From Candidatus Aenigmatarchaeota archaeon (GTDB lineage Archaea; Aenigmatarchaeota; Aenigmatarchaeia; PWEA01; JACQIF01), in assembly GCA_016432325.1 (NCBI GenBank), contig CP066684.1, forward strand, positions 785,090-849,089: DNA of 64,000 bases. Reading direction: 5' to 3'. Below are positions 28,761-37,826 of this stretch, one piece after another. A program made the position numbers and the translations under genes. The notes beneath the pieces are model-generated. The model was not told the origin of the DNA. It was given only the letters and a program-made list of their open reading frames with translations, and ran no database searches. Position 1 is the stretch's first letter; every line of letters begins with the position of its first letter.

Positions 28761-29228
28761 GTGAACATGGGTCTTGAAGTCGAGAAAAGGCTGGAAGAGA
28801 AGGGCATTTCGTACAGGCTCATAGAGCTTGAAGGGAGAGCCGTGTCTGTGAAAGATGTGCTGGCCCTTGCCAAGGAGAAGATAAAACTCGAAGAGGTGTG
28901 CAAGACTATAGTGGCGAAGGACGGCAAAGGCAACAGCTATGCATTCGTCCTCAAGGGCAACCAAAAGATAGACATGGCCAAAGCCGAACGTCTCGTAGGA
29001 GGAGGTCTCAGAATAGCGAGACCCGAGGAAGTGGAGGATGCCGCGGGCGTCGAGCCCGGCGCTGTGTGCCCGCTCCTGCTGGAGATTCCCATACTTGTTG
29101 ACAGGCGGGTCTTGGATACCGAAAGGATAAACTTCGGTTCCGGAGACCATCTGTATGGGGTGGAAATCTCGACGAAGGATTTGGAGAAGGTCATCGAGTT
29201 TCGCGTGGCGGATTTTGCGAAGGTGTGA
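28761..29228 (+). CDS. ybaK: YbaK/ProX-type aminoacyl-tRNA deacylase
   Basis: 155 aa; AFVLKGNQKIDMAKAERLVG...GAVCPL region resembles YbaK/ProX editing domain. Confidence 0.6.
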   Translation: MNMGLEVEKRLEEKGISYRLIELEGRAVSVKDVLALAKEKIKLEEVCKTIVAKDGKGNSYAFVLKGNQKIDMAKAERLVGGGLRIARPEEVEDAAGVEPGAVCPLLLEIPILVDRRVLDTERINFGSGDHLYGVEISTKDLEKVIEFRVADFAKV

Positions 29229-30598
29229 ACATGGACATGGAGAAAAGGATGGAACTGATAAAACAAGTAGGAGAGGAGATATTAACCGAAGAAGAACTAC
29301 GAGAACTTCTTGCCAAGAAACGCGATCCCATCGCCTACGACGGCTTTGAGCCTTCCGGACGCATGCACATTGCGCAGGGAATTTTGCGTGCGATTAATAT
29401 TAACAAGATGACCCGTGCCGGCTGCAAATTCAAGATGCTTGTTGCGGATTGGCACGCCTGGGCTAACAACAAGATGGGGGGCGACCTCGATGCGATTCAG
29501 ATGGTAGGCGAATACATGATAGAGGTCTGGCGAGCCAGCGGTATGGAACTGGACAACGTGGAGTTTGTCTGGGCCTCGGACCTAGCAAAGGACGACGAGT
29601 ACTGGAAAATCGTTATGAACGTTGCCCGCGCGTCGACGCTCAATCGTATTATACGCACCGCACAAATAATGGGACGATCGGAACGTGACACTCTCTCGGC
29701 CGCGCAGATACTCTATCCATGCATGCAGGCCGCGGACATCTTCTACCTGAAAGCCGACATAACACAACTCGGCATGGACCAGAGGAAGGTGAACGTTCTG
29801 GCTCGCGAGCTGGGGCCGTCGCTTGGGTTTTGGAAACCTGTTGTTGTTTCGCACCATATGCTGATGGGACTTGTGGAACCCACTACAAAACCACATATAG
29901 CTACAAGGCATCTGGATCTTCAGGGAACGTTGCCTTTGCCCAACGGAGGACAATTAAGAATAAAATCAGTTCCATCACAAAAAGGACTTTTACCAGTTTT
30001 AAACCATCCTGCCTATGGCGGCCGAGGATTTAGTGCAAAATTCTTTTACACTCCACCAAAATCAGTGACAGCGACAGAGGAAGAATTGTGGCAACGGGAA
30101 TTAACAAACCTTGATGGGATCGGGGTCAAACTTATATCTCTCGATCAAATGACAGGTGAAGCTCAGTTGGAAATAATTTCAGGACCTTCAGCAGAAGAGC
30201 GGGCGATGGCGATGAAGATGTCCAAATCGGTCCCAGACAGCGCGATATTCATGACAGACTCCGTAGACGATATTAGCGAGAAGATATCGAAAGCGTACTG
30301 TCCAGAAAAGCAGACAAACGAGAATCCGATTTTGGAATATTGCAGGCATATTATTTTCGGGTTGAACGAAGAGATGAAAATAAGCAGATCGGCCAAATGG
30401 GGTGGTAATGTAACGTATAGTTCATACGGTGAGCTTGAAAGGGACTATGCCGGCGGGAAGTTGCACCCAATGGATTTGAAAGCCGCCGTGATAAAATATT
30501 TGGTGAAAGCAGTCGAGCCGATACAAAAGCACTTCTCCAAGAACAAGAAAGCCGCCGAACTTCTGAAGTTCGTGGAAGGCGCGAAGGTGACCAGATGA
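29225..30598 (+). CDS. tyrS: tyrosyl-tRNA synthetase (archaeal class I) with large internal insertion
   Basis: GFEPSGRMHIAQG (HIGH-region equivalent), KMSKS, C-terminal KAYCPEK...LHPMDLKAAV; about 110 extra residues between HHMLMGL and KMSKS. Confidence 0.75.
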   Translation: MNMDMEKRMELIKQVGEEILTEEELRELLAKKRDPIAYDGFEPSGRMHIAQGILRAININKMTRAGCKFKMLVADWHAWANNKMGGDLDAIQMVGEYMIEVWRASGMELDNVEFVWASDLAKDDEYWKIVMNVARASTLNRIIRTAQIMGRSERDTLSAAQILYPCMQAADIFYLKADITQLGMDQRKVNVLARELGPSLGFWKPVVVSHHMLMGLVEPTTKPHIATRHLDLQGTLPLPNGGQLRIKSVPSQKGLLPVLNHPAYGGRGFSAKFFYTPPKSVTATEEELWQRELTNLDGIGVKLISLDQMTGEAQLEIISGPSAEERAMAMKMSKSVPDSAIFMTDSVDDISEKISKAYCPEKQTNENPILEYCRHIIFGLNEEMKISRSAKWGGNVTYSSYGELERDYAGGKLHPMDLKAAVIKYLVKAVEPIQKHFSKNKKAAELLKFVEGAKVTR

Positions 30599-30644
30599 AA
30601 ACGCGCGGCGTTTTCAAAGTTACCTCCAACGGGGTCGGTAACCG

Positions 30645-31913
30645 ATGATCGACATAGAACTCCTGAGAAAAGATGCGGACGCAGTGCGCGCGAATCTCGC
30701 GCGCCGCCACAAGCCCGAGCTGCTCGAACTGCTGGACTCGGTCATCGAGATGGACGAAAAATGGAGAAAGGCGCAAGGCGAACTGGACGCTCTGCGCGCC
30801 AAGCGCAACGAGCTCACCGAACAGATACGCAAGAAGAAAGACGCGAAGCTGATAGCGCAAGCGCGCGACGCCAGCGCGCATGTGAAGGCCCTCGAAGACG
30901 AAGTGGCGTTCCTCAAGCCGAAGCTTGATTTCGAGCTCTCAAAGATTCCTGTGATGCTGCACAAAGACGTGCCGGACGGAAAAGACGCGAACGACAATCC
31001 CGTCGTCCGTACGTGGGGCAAGCAGACAAAACCGAAATTCGCGCTCGCGTCTCATGGGGAACTTATCGAGGCTCTGGGAATCGGGGACTTCGACAGGGCG
31101 TCGGAGATCGCCGGACGCGGATTCAACTACATCATGGGCGACCTGGCTCTTCTTGACAGGGCGCTGCAGGCGTATGGAATTGAATTTCTGATAAAGAACG
31201 GCTTCAGGTTCGTCGAGCCGCCGCTGATGATAAGGAAGCGCCCGATGGAAGGCACAACGGACTTCCAGGCGTTCATAGACGTCCTCTACAAGATAGAAGG
31301 GGAAGACCTGTACCTCATTCCTTCGTCCGAGAACTCGCTCGTCCCGTTCTATATGGACCAAGTCATCGATGAAGACGAACTGCCGCTAAAGATAGTCGGC
31401 GTCAGCCCGTGCTTCCGCAAGGAGATCGGTTCGCACAGCGTCGACACCAAGGGTCTCTACCGCATGCACCAGTTCAACAAGGTCGAGGAAGTCGTAATCT
31501 GCAAACCCGAAGACTCGTGGAAGTGGTTCGAGAAATTGCAGGCGATAAGCGAGGATATTTTGCAGTCGCTCAAGATACCTTACCGCGTCGTCGACATCTG
31601 CACAGGCGATATCGGCTCGAAACAGTCGCGCCAGTACGACATAGAAGCGTGGTTCCCGCGGCAGGGCAAGTACGGCGAGATCACATCCTGTTCGAACTGC
31701 GTCGACTATCAGGCGCGCGGCCTGAACATGAAGTACGGCAAGCGCGGCGGCTCGCGCGCGTTCGTGCACACTCTGAACAACACGTGCGTCGCCACTTCGC
31801 GCATAATGGTCGCGATTCTCGAGAACTTCCAGAACGAGGACGGCACAGTCGACGTTCCGAAGGTGCTGTGGCCGTACATGATGGGACGGAAGACGATTGG
31901 GAAGGCGAAGTGA
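30645..31913 (+). CDS. serS: seryl-tRNA synthetase
   Basis: N-terminal coiled-coil, class II core with conserved SPCFRKE and NCVDYQAR regions. Confidence 0.85.
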   Translation: MIDIELLRKDADAVRANLARRHKPELLELLDSVIEMDEKWRKAQGELDALRAKRNELTEQIRKKKDAKLIAQARDASAHVKALEDEVAFLKPKLDFELSKIPVMLHKDVPDGKDANDNPVVRTWGKQTKPKFALASHGELIEALGIGDFDRASEIAGRGFNYIMGDLALLDRALQAYGIEFLIKNGFRFVEPPLMIRKRPMEGTTDFQAFIDVLYKIEGEDLYLIPSSENSLVPFYMDQVIDEDELPLKIVGVSPCFRKEIGSHSVDTKGLYRMHQFNKVEEVVICKPEDSWKWFEKLQAISEDILQSLKIPYRVVDICTGDIGSKQSRQYDIEAWFPRQGKYGEITSCSNCVDYQARGLNMKYGKRGGSRAFVHTLNNTCVATSRIMVAILENFQNEDGTVDVPKVLWPYMMGRKTIGKAK

Positions 31914-35233: not shown

Positions 35234-35271
35234 CATACCCGTTATTAATAGATTCGTCCTCTATCCGAAGT

Positions 35272-36135
35272 ATGCTATTGGACTTTGTCGTTGATGGCCA
35301 TGGCAAAACCAAGATCTTTGTCGAACGGCTTGAAACGCTTTTTGGTGCGACGTTTGTGGCGGCGTCACCGAACCACCCGCTGAGCCATGGAAAGCCTCTG
35401 GGAAGTTTTACCGGAGCATACGCGGCCAATCCCGTCAACAACGAGAAAATTCCTGTTTGGGTTGCGGCGTATGTCAGAGACGGAGCCGTCGCGGCCGTTC
35501 CCGCTCACAGCCAAGCGGACTATGTGTTTGCAAAGGAACACGGACTACCCATCAGAACAGTAATCGAACCGCTAACAGGCGAGCCTCAGCAAAATCCCGA
35601 ACTCCGACGCAGTATAGTCGCGCTTGTTGCAAATCCGCAGACAAACCAAATCCTCTCCATTAACTGGGGGCCGCAGGCCGGAGGCAATCTTCTCATAGGA
35701 GGCGGCCGCGAAGAAAATGAAGATCCCGTTGAGTGCGCTAAACGGGAGATAGCCGAAGAGACAGGGTATAGAGACGTGACGTTGGTCGCACAGTCCGAGC
35801 GCATCCACCACCGCTACTTTGCGCACTCGAAGAACAAGGCTCGCCAGATAGAAGCGATCGGCCTTTTCTTCAATCTGCAGAGCAACGAAAGGATAAATCC
35901 AAAACTAGAGGCAGACGAAGTTGGCAGGTTTAAAGTCGAATGGCTTTCCGAACCCGATGCGGCGGAACGGATCAGAGACGAACTCCATCGTTACGTGTTC
36001 GCCAAATTCATCAGGGACGAAGTTCACAGCGGCGAAGGCATCCTCATTAACTCCGGCAATTATAGCGGTATGAATTCGAGACAAGCCTGCGAACAGATGA
36101 CGAAGGACTTCGTAACCCAGATCGAACAGCGTTGA
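35272..36135 (+). CDS. chimeric protein: LeuRS-like linker segments flanking a Nudix hydrolase domain
   Basis: ETLFGATFVAASPNHPL and IPVWVAAYVRDGAVAAVPAHSQADYVFAKEHGLPI resemble bacterial-type LeuRS motifs; central Nudix box GGGREENEDPVECAKREIAEETGY; C-terminal ILINSGNYSGMNS resembles LeuRS segment after CP1. Confidence 0.5.
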   Translation: MLLDFVVDGHGKTKIFVERLETLFGATFVAASPNHPLSHGKPLGSFTGAYAANPVNNEKIPVWVAAYVRDGAVAAVPAHSQADYVFAKEHGLPIRTVIEPLTGEPQQNPELRRSIVALVANPQTNQILSINWGPQAGGNLLIGGGREENEDPVECAKREIAEETGYRDVTLVAQSERIHHRYFAHSKNKARQIEAIGLFFNLQSNERINPKLEADEVGRFKVEWLSEPDAAERIRDELHRYVFAKFIRDEVHSGEGILINSGNYSGMNSRQACEQMTKDFVTQIEQR

Positions 36136-36173: not shown

Positions 36174-37826
36174 ATGCGCAAGGGAGTCTCGGCGTTGATA
36201 GTGTCCATATTCCTGGTTATCGTGACCGTTGCGCTCACATACGCGTTCCTCGCATGGTCGCAGAGCACGCAGCAGGAGATTCAGGAACGGGTCGGCGAAG
36301 GAGGCGAGCGCCAGACCGGTTCGTTAAGCGCAGGCCTCGCCGTCGTCGCAGTCGCAGACAACCAAATCTCGATAAAGAATACCGGCAGGAACGTCGTCGA
36401 GACGTCAAAGATAGACATTCTTATTGACGGCAAGAGGGCGGCGAGCGTCCCGGACCGCGCGAGCATAGGGCCGGGTCAGGTGGCTGTCGTGAACGTAACG
36501 AACTTCGTGCCCGGCGTGCGCAAGGTGCGCGTCTCCGGACCGCTTGGCACGTCTGACGAAACGCAGGAGCCGCTCCTGTATCCGGGCACTGTCGCCTTCT
36601 ACGACTTTTTGCCAGAAGACGAAGCGAGAGTCAAAGACAGCGCCGCAGGACACAACGACGGCGCGCTTAACGGGACGACTGAGCTTGCACTGCATTTCGA
36701 TGAGAGCCGCGGAGACCTCGCACAGGACGCGAGCGTGAACGCTAACGACGGGATTCTGAAGAACGGAGCAACGTGGACGTCGGGCGTGAGCCGCAGCGGC
36801 GTGAAGTTAGACGGTTCCAACGACTTTGTGGAGGTTTCACACTCCACATCACTCAACGCAGTCAACGCATGGACGCTCGAAGCGTGGGTCAACGCCGACG
36901 CTTTTGCAAGCGAGTCTTACATAATATCCAAGCAAGCCGCTGGGAGCGTACAGACACCTTACGGCATGGCAATCAAAGGCAGCGGCGGAACCCTGACGGC
37001 ATGGTACTACGATTCGGCATGGCGGGAAGTGCCCTATAGCTTTGCTTTCCAGCCCGGCGTTTGGTATCATGTCGCGGCGACCTTCGACGGCACGTCGATC
37101 CGCGTATACCTGAACGGAGAACAAAAAGCTACAGGAGCGTCAGGCGGTTCGCCTCCGAGCACAACAGCCCCTGTTTCCCTTGGGTGGTCTGGCGGATATG
37201 CCGATGCGGCGCATGCTTGGAAAGGCACAATAGACGAAGTGGCAATCCACACACGTGCGCTCTCGCCTCAAGATGTCAAAAAACGTTTCGACGCCAAGCG
37301 CGTTCTCTTCTCCGATTACGTTGACGGACCATTGAACTCGGCGCTGAATCTCGACGGGCGTTCGCATGTGCGCGTCCCGGATTCGCAGGCGCTTGACATA
37401 TTCTCCACCATAACCATGGAAGCGTGGGTGAGCCCCAAACAGTCGTCGGGCCAGCAAACCGTGCTCTGGAAGGAAGGCGCGTACGCTCTGTGGATCGACT
37501 CGGCGAACAGGATAACGGCCCGCGTCTGGCCTCAGGGAAGCAGCGCCGCGCAGATAACATCTGACGTAGCGTTAGGCGCGAACTCCTGGAGCCACGTTGT
37601 CGCGACAGCCGACGGAGAGACTCTCGAGATATACGTCAACGGCGCGCTCGTCAAGTCAGGCACCTACGCTGGGCAGATACAGCCCACGGAAACCCCGCTG
37701 TTCGTGGGAGCAGCGGACGCATCTCTGACGAATCCCTTTAACGGCGCCATCGAATACGCGGCCATCTACAAGACCGCGCTCTCCGCAGACCAAATAAACG
37801 AGATATACGACGCCGGAAAGGCCTAA
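36174..37826 (+). CDS. archaeal type IV pilin-like protein with two LamG-like domains
   Basis: Class III signal peptide (MRKG|VSALIVSIFLVIV); two concanavalin-A/LamG-like modules each ending in a motif like IDEVAIHTRALSPQDV / AIEYAAIYKTALSADQI. Confidence 0.65.
   Translation: MRKGVSALIVSIFLVIVTVALTYAFLAWSQSTQQEIQERVGEGGERQTGSLSAGLAVVAVADNQISIKNTGRNVVETSKIDILIDGKRAASVPDRASIGPGQVAVVNVTNFVPGVRKVRVSGPLGTSDETQEPLLYPGTVAFYDFLPEDEARVKDSAAGHNDGALNGTTELALHFDESRGDLAQDASVNANDGILKNGATWTSGVSRSGVKLDGSNDFVEVSHSTSLNAVNAWTLEAWVNADAFASESYIISKQAAGSVQTPYGMAIKGSGGTLTAWYYDSAWREVPYSFAFQPGVWYHVAATFDGTSIRVYLNGEQKATGASGGSPPSTTAPVSLGWSGGYADAAHAWKGTIDEVAIHTRALSPQDVKKRFDAKRVLFSDYVDGPLNSALNLDGRSHVRVPDSQALDIFSTITMEAWVSPKQSSGQQTVLWKEGAYALWIDSANRITARVWPQGSSAAQITSDVALGANSWSHVVATADGETLEIYVNGALVKSGTYAGQIQPTETPLFVGAADASLTNPFNGAIEYAAIYKTALSADQINEIYDAGKA

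Follow-up and report, generated by a model that had tools for sequence, protein, structure and literature searches.

A reduced stand-alone LeuRS CP1 domain with a Nudix insertion in an Aenigmatarchaeota archaeon

A gene in DNA from a Candidatus Aenigmatarchaeota archaeon raises the question of which part of bacterial-type leucyl-tRNA synthetase (LeuRS) its product has kept, and what a Nudix domain might be doing within that part. The stretch of DNA that was analysed, 64,000 nucleotides in length, is called the window here. The open reading frame begins with an ATG at position 35272 and ends with a stop codon at 36133-36135. The NCBI entry identical to its 287-residue product is named 'MAG: NUDIX domain-containing protein [Candidatus Aenigmatarchaeota archaeon]'. 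The identical protein is also encoded on three more independent contigs (L008-L010), and the frame is intact on all four. The gap of 38 nt between topA and the open reading frame contains a TATA-like element, TTATTAATAG, which as read from the sequence is a possible archaeal promoter for a leaderless mRNA. The gene has a GC3 of 0.58, compared with 0.69-0.77 in most neighbouring genes. A YbaK-type editing gene and the genes for TyrRS and SerRS are found within 3-6 kb of it, and there is no LeuRS gene within the 64-kb window. The gene and its parts are as follows.

35272-36135, + strand: complete open reading frame, 287 amino acids and stop codon, encoding a stand-alone CP1 domain that is reduced and carries a Nudix insertion
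35242-35251, + strand: TATA-like element TTATTAATAG, read from the sequence, 21-30 nt upstream of the ATG
35272-35568, + strand: N-terminal part of CP1, residues 1-99, the beta-core of the bacterial LeuRS editing domain (PF13603, PDB CP1 matches, pLDDT)
35320-35337, + strand: degenerate T-rich motif VERLET, residues 17-22, the counterpart of E. coli T247-T248-R249-P250-D251-T252 (TTRPDT)
35383-35400, + strand: site of the missing I2b segment, residues 38-43 (alignments; 32-residue gap relative to the LeuRS P0016)
35476-35484, + strand: site of the shortened GTG loop, residues 69-71 (RDG; alignments)
35497-35520, + strand: VPAHSQAD, residues 76-83, the counterpart of E. coli V338-D345 ('VPAHDxRD' helix)
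35569-36024, + strand: linker and Nudix domain, residues 100-251 (PF00293, Nudix profile, Foldseek, alignment)
35701-35769, + strand: Nudix box G144...Y166 (GGREENEDPVECAKREIAEETGY), read from the sequence and the family alignment
35815-35832, + strand: X-loop region YFAHSK, residues 182-187 (family alignment)
36025-36132, + strand: C-terminal part of CP1, residues 252-287, comprising the GEGILINSGNYSGM strand and loop and the final helix (alignments)

The protein consists of two domains, a CP1-type domain and a Nudix domain. The LeuRS editing domain (PF13603, tRNA-synt_1_2) matches in three stretches with 104.3 bits (E 7e-30, Pfam cut-off 25), and the NUDIX family (PF00293) matches residues 112-242 with 47.7 bits (E 2e-12, cut-off 21.1). 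These scores, far beyond chance for the flanks, support the first-pass annotation in its central claim that a stand-alone protein joins bacterial-type LeuRS-derived sequence to a Nudix domain. With phmmer the protein matches CP1 of the Aquifex and Thermus LeuRS at E values of about 1e-19, and the PDB sequence matches again fall into three stretches, corresponding to the T-rich region, the AHDxRD region and the end of CP1. An AlphaFold2 model has a mean pLDDT of 84, with values of 86-94 across residues 1-99 and low values only in the linker 98-103. Foldseek relates this model to the LeuRS CP1 structures 1obc, 3pz5, 8poq and 2ajg with a probability of 1.00, and to the Nudix fold of 2azw (E 4.5e-10, TM 0.77 normalised to target).

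The position of these sequences within LeuRS differs from that first proposed. The two N-terminal motifs had been placed just upstream of CP1 and the C-terminus just after it; the former are the T-rich region and the 'VPAHDxRD' helix of CP1 itself, and the C-terminal segment (residues 252-283, starting GEGILINSGNYSGM) is the last part of CP1, ending short of the 'VNYRLRDW' sequence with which LeuRS returns to its catalytic body. In alignments the borders of the protein are exactly the borders of CP1. Since the flanks are CP1 itself, the Nudix domain is inserted into a CP1 loop and is not a replacement of CP1. The idea that a Nudix domain has replaced the editing module is ruled out by the PF13603 and PDB CP1 matches, which cover both flanks, and the Foldseek probability and model confidence agree. 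The insertion point corresponds to a surface loop of CP1 in the I4b region, at approximately residues 362-378 of E. coli LeuRS. The profile search that had been proposed does find LeuRS-derived flanks around NUDIX, but they belong to PF13603 and PF00133 is absent. PF09334 and PF08264 are likewise without a match in the protein, which thus shows neither a full LeuRS body nor an anticodon-binding domain in Pfam. The leucine--tRNA ligase profiles stay below their cut-offs, the bacterial one (TIGR00396) with 68 bits against 548.4 and the archaeal one (TIGR00395) with 12 against 648.5.

The CP1 part has kept its core and lost much of its editing apparatus. Residues 44-99 are 61-71% identical to CP1 of Patescibacteria LeuRS. 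The beta-core fold is shared with canonical CP1 domains (E. coli 2AJG, T. thermophilus 1OBC, A. aeolicus 3PZ5 and S. pneumoniae 4K47), as are the 'LFGAT', 'NP..E.IP', 'VPAH...D' and 'G.G...NSG' motifs and D345. Canonical CP1 domains differ in that they carry no Nudix domain in I4b, retain I2b, the GTG loop and T247/T248, and always occur within LeuRS. In the T-rich motif of the window protein T247 is replaced by Val and T248 by Glu, leaving T252 as the only one of the three threonines. In VPAHSQAD a Ser takes the place of D342, and D83 corresponds to the universally conserved D345. The missing I2b, a segment of bacterial CP1 as defined in PMC3747510, amounts to about 32 residues forming three helices (approximately 268-300 in E. 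coli). The GTG loop (E. coli G331-T-G333), which in LeuRS CP1 binds A76 of the tRNA (PMC3747510), has lost four residues and with them the motif.

The Nudix part is intact. As the first-pass annotation had stated, its Nudix box is canonical: G144-x5-E150-x7-R158-E159-I-A-E162-E163-T-G165-Y166 conforms to GX5EX7REUXEEXGU. The X-loop places Y182 and F183 at positions +16 and +17 after the box, and this aromatic pair is found in essentially all of the 128 sequences compared. A Tyr in the X-loop approximately 16-18 residues after the Nudix box is the heuristic rule for ApnA hydrolases (PMC5389931). The closest solved structure by profile is lupin Ap4A hydrolase (1f3y, 2.5e-6), and Foldseek finds RppH (4s2x, TM 0.69) and RppH-RNA complexes (TM 0.63-0.69), all normalised to target. 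In NCBIfam there are only sub-threshold matches, so that no curated family covers the protein; RppH is the most consistent of these weak matches but lies far below its cut-off (NF001938, 20.2 bits against 116). Free Nudix relatives of about 160 residues, which lack CP1, reach 42 bits at most in the RppH/ApnA hydrolase (NudH) group (cut-off 118). On these sequence grounds the Nudix domain may be called weakly ApnA-hydrolase/RppH-like. It shares with that group (lupin 1F3Y, E. coli RppH 4S2X) the Nudix box, the fold and the aromatic/Tyr of the X-loop, and is set apart from it by scores under the cut-offs, by its own invariant residues A184, K187 and W224, and by the fact that 89 of the best 149 members of its clade are LeuRS insertions. 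PADLOC returned just PDC-S07 (E about 1e-3, Nudix box only) and PHROGs only generic Nudix families; a phage or defence-system component was rejected, as neither source gave a specific family.

That clade was delimited with a Nudix-only profile, searched against 1.84 billion representatives, which gave 251 matches at E<=1e-10. Among the best 149 of the 251 representatives, 89 are LeuRS, 39 of them at least 900 residues long, and 89 of the Nudix copies that these LeuRS carry sit at the same CP1 site. Uninterrupted LeuRS reading frames of 940-1300 residues with the insertion are present in about 20 GTDB reference genomes of Patescibacteria; examples are Moranbacteria KKP58971.1 (957 aa) and Absconditicoccaceae MFZ2150951.1 (973 aa). 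Many Patescibacteria LeuRS carry between one and three Nudix domains, and sometimes an alpha/beta-hydrolase, in or beside the editing domain. They are annotated plainly as leucyl-tRNA synthetase, and as a group they are apparently undescribed. The relationship to the window protein is close. One such LeuRS (P0014) is 61% identical to it over 233 residues, with the four-residue loss in the GTG loop as the sole indel; another (P0016) is 48% identical, with the 32-residue I2b gap. P0014 and P0016 are both encoded on short contigs, the former from a groundwater metagenome. A Saccharibacteria LeuRS (locus L024) is 43% identical over the shared CP1 and Nudix region, and the junction EPLTGEPQQNPELRRSIV is common to the window protein and a Saccharibacteria LeuRS. 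The Nudix clade, the point of insertion in CP1 and the junction sequence are thus the same in both kinds of protein. The Patescibacteria proteins differ from the window protein in being full synthetases, with a HIGH/KMSKS body, an anticodon-binding domain and I2b, and their T-rich, GTG and AHDxRD motifs are intact where those of the window protein are lost or degenerate. In the LeuRS-embedded copies T247, T248 and T252 are each present in 65 of 66 sequences, D342 and D345 in all 66.

The stand-alone form is not restricted to the window either. An alignment-based search found relatives of about 300 residues with the same layout, in about 50 clusters at 90% identity. An earlier word-indexed search had found just five clusters, compared with the dozens of LeuRS and roughly 50 stand-alone clusters recovered by profile and alignment. 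The first-pass annotation did not recognise the architecture, and no curated family describes it; these exhaustive Nudix-profile and alignment-based searches do, however, rule out that it is unique. It is a recurrent family, but one whose members are named only 'NUDIX domain-containing protein' in their sources, and our literature searches on LeuRS or other aminoacyl-tRNA synthetases with Nudix, and on free-standing CP1, found nothing relevant. A 2017 review of the Nudix clan does not mention tRNA synthetases (PMC5389931).

For comparison we used 62 stand-alone sequences (17-65% identity) from Firmicutes, Patescibacteria and this Aenigmatarchaeote. The Nudix catalytic residues E150, R158, E159 and E162 are present in 62/62 and E163 in 60/62. 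Few of the CP1 catalytic residues are left (T247 in 3/62, T248 in 6/62, T252 in 1/62, D342 in 4/62), and neither the GTG loop nor I2b remains. Other residues of the pocket are retained, namely D345 (56/62), H341 (61/62) and R249 (47/62), and the replacement of T252 is consistent and not random, with Leu in 59/62. The retention of D345, H341 and R249 together with the consistent Leu suggests that selection still maintains what was once the editing pocket, for some function. A neighbour-joining (NJ) tree contains a 53-member clade with a bootstrap of 93 on a poorly supported backbone, which leaves the number of independent origins uncertain; neither the tree nor the linker signatures support one common origin for every stand-alone form, though the backbone bootstraps are weak. 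A related lineage (P0004, loci L003-L007) has a frameshift and a deletion of about 25 residues within the Nudix domain on five contigs. In one bacterial locus (L091) the homologue lies 17 nt upstream of leuS, whose product has its own complete CP1 (TTxxxT, GTG, AHDQRD). A general linkage to leuS was rejected, because the arrangement was seen only in this locus and is absent from the Ruminococcus and Clostridia-type contexts and from the window.

A particular Nudix clade entered the I4b surface loop of LeuRS CP1 in Patescibacteria, where the editing motifs are intact. The CP1::Nudix module apparently became an independent gene more than once and, on its own, shed the catalytic threonines along with the I2b helices and the GTG loop that binds A76. 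The Aenigmatarchaeota copy was most likely acquired by transfer from bacteria. We consider it reasonably probable that the window gene encodes a catalytically competent Nudix pyrophosphohydrolase, housed in a bacterial LeuRS CP1 that is reduced and probably no longer edits. The Nudix domain would hydrolyse a nucleoside-diphosphate-linked compound, for which our best guess is an adenine-containing dinucleoside polyphosphate (ApnA) or a related adenylylated by-product of the reactions that aminoacyl-tRNA synthetases carry out. The CP1 core would no longer deacylate tRNA and would act as a structural platform into which the Nudix domain is threaded. As free Nudix relatives of about 160 residues exist, a Nudix domain does not in general need the CP1 core in order to fold, and keeping that core calls for more than a scaffold; it may also be an adaptor that still recognises LeuRS, an adenosine moiety or the acceptor end of a tRNA.

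If the CP1 remnant were still to dock on the acceptor end of a tRNA, or on tRNALeu bound to LeuRS, an RppH-like Nudix domain could act on an RNA end and take off a group attached through pyrophosphate, for instance a 5'-triphosphate, a cap (NAD or Np4A) or a pyrophosphorylated 3'-CCA end. In LeuRS it is CP1 that receives the 3' end of the tRNA (PMC11295145, PMC3747510), the Nudix domain is grafted on CP1 itself in 89 LeuRS-linked copies among the best 149 representatives, and the weak RppH matches, the Foldseek alignments with RppH-RNA complexes and the retained D345, H341 and R249 all point the same way. We nevertheless regard this as unlikely, because all stand-alone proteins lack the A76-binding loop and have a degenerate T-rich region, the RppH scores fall far under the cut-off, and the gene contexts show no tRNA-related linkage save for L091 beside leuS. 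The same losses speak against a free-standing trans-editing factor comparable to AlaX, YbaK or ProXp, whose CP1 part would still hydrolyse mischarged tRNA with the Nudix domain as an add-on. The window protein does have T252 and D345, its CP1 part folds confidently in the AlphaFold2 model, a YbaK-type gene, TyrRS and SerRS are 3-6 kb away, and L091 adjoins leuS. With T247 as Val, T248 as Glu, D342 as Ser and both the GTG loop and I2b gone, with the catalytic threonines lost in more than 90% of the family and kept in 65 of 66 LeuRS-embedded copies, and with a bacterial-type CP1 (TIGR00396 68 bits, TIGR00395 12 bits) in a host expected to have archaeal tRNALeu and LeuRS, we judge it improbable.

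Loss of editing motifs, the atypical GC3 and the frameshifted P0004 lineage would also fit a LeuRS fragment that was acquired horizontally and is now decaying without a function. This account is hard to reconcile with a frame that is intact and identical on four contigs, with 62 homologues that keep the Nudix catalytic residues and share family-specific substitutions, with the well-supported 53-member clade, with the high pLDDT or with residues 44-99 that are still 61-71% identical to LeuRS; we think it improbable too. Finally, the host LeuRS might lack CP1 and receive it in trans from the window protein. LeuRS that are split or lack CP1 do occur naturally (the PDB matches include the Aquifex alpha/beta subunits) and the protein has exactly the borders of CP1, but the motifs that a complementing CP1 would need are lost, the leuS adjoining L091 has its own complete CP1 and the window contains no LeuRS, which makes a split synthetase very unlikely indeed.

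Alongside the pyrophosphohydrolase reading stands a broader proposal, which we put forward only as speculation and consider rather unlikely: that the Nudix domain is a previously unrecognised second quality control coupled to LeuRS, clearing ApnA/Np4A by-products or aberrant pyrophosphate-linked modifications or caps at the tRNA acceptor end, and that the stand-alone proteins deliver it in trans via a repurposed pocket (T252 to Leu; D345, H341 and R249 kept). If this were true, the stand-alone CP1-remnant::Nudix proteins would be the first free-standing descendants of class Ia CP1.

Several autonomous proteins derived from synthetase editing domains are known, including AlaX, YbaK/ProXp, ThrRS-ed and DTD, and no CP1 homologue is among the free-standing editing enzymes shown in a 2024 review (PMC11295145). 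The window protein resembles them in being such an autonomous derivative. They are of class II editing origin and keep their catalytic residues; unlike the AlaX/YbaK/ProXp type, the window protein has lost most of the CP1 catalytic elements, leaving an incomplete catalytic site, and carries a second enzyme domain. The stand-alone family would fill the missing CP1 place among these relatives, though editing has seemingly been given up.

Patescibacteria genomes are otherwise minimal. The LeuRS::Nudix proteins elaborate an essential translation enzyme substantially and in a way that is apparently undescribed; they suggest that an activity acting on nucleotides or RNA ends is physically linked to leucylation or editing. 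Separate stand-alone lineages have convergently lost the same CP1 elements, a natural experiment on which parts matter only in the context of LeuRS and tRNA, and the archaeal copy is a probable case of a bacterial synthetase-derived module moving into a DPANN archaeon.

The CP1+Nudix open reading frame, as read from the window sequence, lies in the following setting:

28761-29228, + strand: YbaK/ProX-type tRNA_edit protein
29225-30598, + strand: TyrRS, 457 aa
30645-31913, + strand: SerRS
35272-36135, + strand: CP1+Nudix protein, 287 aa (ATG at 35272, stop codon at 36133-36135)
36174-37826, + strand: pilin-like LamG protein, 550 aa

A type IA topoisomerase gene ends 38 nt upstream of the CP1+Nudix gene and the LamG protein gene begins 38 nt downstream. 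The surrounding archaeal genes encode fibrillarin, TyrRS (best match NF006330), an S-layer protein and a helicase with archaeal helicase domain 4, the gene is therefore located in an archaeal chromosome. The window is one continuous sequence, so this placement is not a binning artefact. An identical 287-residue NCBI entry is named 'MAG: NUDIX domain-containing protein [Candidatus Aenigmatarchaeota archaeon]' (874,869-bp contig), and the protein is found unchanged, with the same neighbours, on three further assemblies.

Some of the neighbours have features of their own. The LamG protein contains two LamG/concanavalin-like domains and a hydrophobic N-terminal segment resembling an archaeal class III (pilin-type) signal peptide ('MRKGVSALIVSIFLVIVTVALT'). 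The tRNA_edit, TyrRS and SerRS genes form a co-directional run of translation-fidelity genes (28761-31913), 3-6 kb upstream of the CP1-Nudix gene. The tRNA_edit gene overlaps the TyrRS start by 4 nt, and its YbaK match falls below the equivalog cut-off. TyrRS carries an insert of ~110 aa without a Pfam match, from 'HHMLMGL' (~aa 222) to the 'KMSKS' loop (~aa 341), roughly 29891-30230, and TyrRS family models match it in two separate stretches.

The window protein matches the LeuRS editing domain (PF13603) in three stretches with 104 bits (E 7e-30) and NUDIX (PF00293) at residues 112-242 with 47.7 bits (E 2e-12), so that PF13603 fragments flank the NUDIX domain, as the first-pass annotation had anticipated for LeuRS-like segments. 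Its matches among PDB sequences are isolated CP1 editing domains, taken from the LeuRS of Aquifex, Thermus, Mycobacterium, Streptococcus and E. coli, and they again cover three segments:

aa 14-38: T-rich region, 'VERLETLFGATF' against 'TTRPDTVFGATF'
aa 43-100: 'GTGA..VPAHDQRD..FAK..LPI' region
aa 251-278: last CP1 segment

An AlphaFold2 model has a mean pLDDT of 84, falling below 50 only in the linker 98-103, and Foldseek matches it with probability 1.00 to structures of LeuRS CP1 and of Nudix domains alike. By profile score the LeuRS likeness is bacterial-type, at 68 bits for TIGR00396 against 12 bits for the archaeal-type TIGR00395. The proposed similarity to LeuRS thus stands, as does a Nudix domain, its catalytic residues all present, but the flanks are the editing domain itself and not linkers outside CP1.

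The insertion site was located in an alignment of stand-alone proteins, Nudix-bearing LeuRS and Nudix-free LeuRS, with numbering set from E. coli leuS (TTRPDT 247-252, GTG 331-333, D342 and D345 in 'HDQRD'). The Nudix domain is inserted between ~I361 and ~K379, in the loop after the helix bearing D345, this is the position of the bacterial 'I4b' insertion (PMC3747510). It is therefore an insert within CP1, and does not replace the editing module as had been supposed. The window protein lacks a segment of ~32 residues (~268-300) corresponding to the three-helix 'I2b' insertion, and its GTG loop, which binds tRNA A76 (PMC3747510), is 4 residues shorter than in LeuRS. The T-rich motif reads V-E-R-L-E-T, against T-T-R-P-D-T in LeuRS, D342 is replaced by Ser and D345 is kept. 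In this alignment the I2b segment and GTG loop were missing from all ten stand-alone proteins included.

The same architecture is found within complete synthetases. A search of 1.84 billion representative proteins with a profile built from only the Nudix part gave 1204 matches at E<=1e-3, of which 251 reached E<=1e-10; the great majority of the best matches are bacterial-type LeuRS. Pfam identified PF13603 and NUDIX in 10/10 of the top matches and PF00133 in 9/10; among the best 77, PF13603 was present in 56 and PF00133 in 49. The best 149 matches, classified protein by protein, comprise 89 LeuRS, full or fragment (39 of at least 900 aa), 29 free Nudix proteins of at most 210 aa and 31 that are short CP1+Nudix proteins or have an unrecognised N-terminus. 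Within these 149, 89 Nudix copies in LeuRS occupy the same CP1 site, 18 lie between the catalytic N-half and CP1 and three in the C-terminal body; some LeuRS contain two or three copies, and some an added alpha/beta-hydrolase. In GTDB reference genomes, uninterrupted LeuRS frames of 940-1300 aa with the insert occur in ~20 species, including Saccharibacteria, Kerfeldbacteria, Parcubacteria, Staskawiczbacteria and other Patescibacteria. Editing residues are intact in these synthetases: over 66 regions T247, T248 and T252 are each present in 65, and D342 and D345 in all. Entries such as Moranbacteria KKP58971.1 and Absconditicoccaceae MFZ2150951.1 are labelled merely leucyl-tRNA synthetase or class I tRNA ligase.

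Some LeuRS of Patescibacteria type (P0012, P0013, P0017, P0018, P0022) have two or three Nudix copies of this one clade, spread over sites ahead of CP1, within it and in the C-terminal body, and two of them carry a PF06821 Ser_hydrolase (alpha/beta-hydrolase) insert; LeuRS seems to be a hotspot of hydrolase-domain accretion in such lineages. At one locus (L001, 5370-8257, a 'contig_' style assembly) three changes of frame divide a full-length Nudix-bearing LeuRS among four gene calls; this is probably due to indel errors of long-read sequencing and not to pseudogene formation. Nudix-bearing LeuRS frames typical of Patescibacteria also occur in two MAGs (L015, L019) with the label 'uncultured Gammaproteobacteria', which could mean mislabelled bins or a broader distribution. 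P0229, a Nudix-only protein of 168 residues that bears the annotation 'leuS [Candidatus Taylorbacteria bacterium]', may represent a split gene or a piece of a Nudix-bearing LeuRS.

Stand-alone proteins form a family of about 50 clusters at 90% identity (264-323 aa, PF13603 with PF00293), found by searching with an alignment of its members. They are labelled 'NUDIX domain-containing protein' by NCBI and come from Bacilli and Ruminococcus MAGs. Every locus examined has a bacterial gene context, for example SecG and RNase R (L092), SpoVG, YabP and DivIC (L099-L101), Mur ligase and ClpB (L091), or a Ruminococcus MAG (L098). In the Clostridia-type genomes of L099-L101 the gene is part of a conserved cluster of some ten small genes, none of them matched by Pfam, adjoining a radical-SAM protein, GNAT, DUF2000 and a weak nSTAND3 match. 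One lineage (P0004; L003 196-1000, also L004-L007) is frameshifted and has also lost ~25 aa from within its Nudix domain, with the same changes on each of five contigs; its C-terminal part runs on in another frame and IleRS lies 3.6 kb downstream. This gene is a probable pseudogene. Residues kept in 62 stand-alone sequences (CP1 in E. coli numbering, Nudix in that of the window protein) are as follows:

T247: 3/62
T248: 6/62
R249: 47/62
T252: 1/62 (the window protein); Leu in 59/62
H341: 61/62
D342: 4/62
D345: 56/62
Nudix E150, R158, E159 and E162: 62/62 each
Nudix E163: 60/62

Over the shared region the closest relative of the window protein is a true LeuRS (P0014, 61% identity over 233 aa), whose cluster contains a 1055-aa member; the stand-alone P0002 has 57%. 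CP1 residues 44-99 are 61-71% identical to Patescibacteria LeuRS, and the domain junction 'EPLTGEPQQNPELRRSIV' matches 'EPETGEPQQNPEFRRSIV' of a Saccharibacteria LeuRS (L024). A neighbour-joining tree (128 taxa, 277 columns, 100 bootstraps), whose deep nodes are without support, pairs the window protein with P0002 (bootstrap 89) and joins the pair to a LeuRS, P0169 (51), while a separate clade (93) of 53 further stand-alone proteins lies beside a different LeuRS group (59). Linker lengths differ between the two stand-alone groups, and each is common to its own LeuRS neighbours. From this grouping and the linkers we infer that CP1::Nudix was excised from LeuRS at least twice and that I2b and the GTG loop were lost in parallel. 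The archaeal copy appears to have been acquired by transfer from bacteria; an archaeal CP1-Nudix copy was not found in GTDB representatives. In GC3 the gene (0.58) lies below most of its neighbours (0.69-0.77), in keeping with such a transfer, though the nearby TyrRS is similarly atypical (0.54).

The first-pass annotation did not recognise this architecture, and our literature search found no description of a LeuRS, or any aminoacyl-tRNA synthetase, with a Nudix insertion, nor of a free-standing CP1 homologue. In Figure 2 of a 2024 review of editing enzymes CP1 appears solely within IleRS, LeuRS and ValRS (PMC11295145), and a 2017 survey of the Nudix clan nowhere mentions tRNA synthetases (PMC5389931). 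The architecture nevertheless recurs in many LeuRS and in the stand-alone clusters. Nudix-LeuRS sequences have been public since at least the Moranbacteria GW2011_GWF1_34_10 entry, with precomputed Pfam domains attached, CP1-Nudix is therefore a variant on known kinds and not categorically new.

The window protein combines a CP1 core that is confidently folded in the AlphaFold2 model with a catalytically complete Nudix domain, and has lost the CP1 elements linked in the literature to hydrolysis and A76 binding. It would not deacylate tRNA, and its role would be that of a Nudix pyrophosphohydrolase. These losses of editing residues make an active trans-editing factor unlikely. A piece of a split LeuRS is also unlikely, because the sole leuS seen adjoining a stand-alone gene, 17 nt downstream in L091 (8001-11268, bacterial MAG GCA_947625535.1), is a normal 806-aa protein with its own complete CP1 and the T-rich motif TTCIET. 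Decay has a precedent in the frameshifted P0004 lineage, but the intact reading frame, conservation across the whole family and the confident fold render a decaying remnant unlikely here. No fitting family was found for a defence-system or phage component.

Aminoacyl-tRNA synthetases produce ApnA as side products, and for this reason an ApnA-type substrate is our best guess for the predicted Nudix activity. The clues are weak and point in one direction: profile comparison gives lupin Ap4A hydrolase (1f3y, E 2.5e-6) as the best relative of solved structure, RppH is the most consistent sub-threshold NCBIfam match for the window protein and free relatives alike, and the X-loop, in which a conserved Tyr is associated with ApnA hydrolases (PMC5389931), has a Tyr-containing aromatic pair at +16/+17 past the Nudix box. 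The main rival is an RNA-end substrate at the tRNA acceptor end. Retention of D345, H341 and R249, together with the uniform change of T252 to Leu, suggests that the old editing pocket is still constrained, which the view of CP1 as a mere scaffold leaves unexplained.
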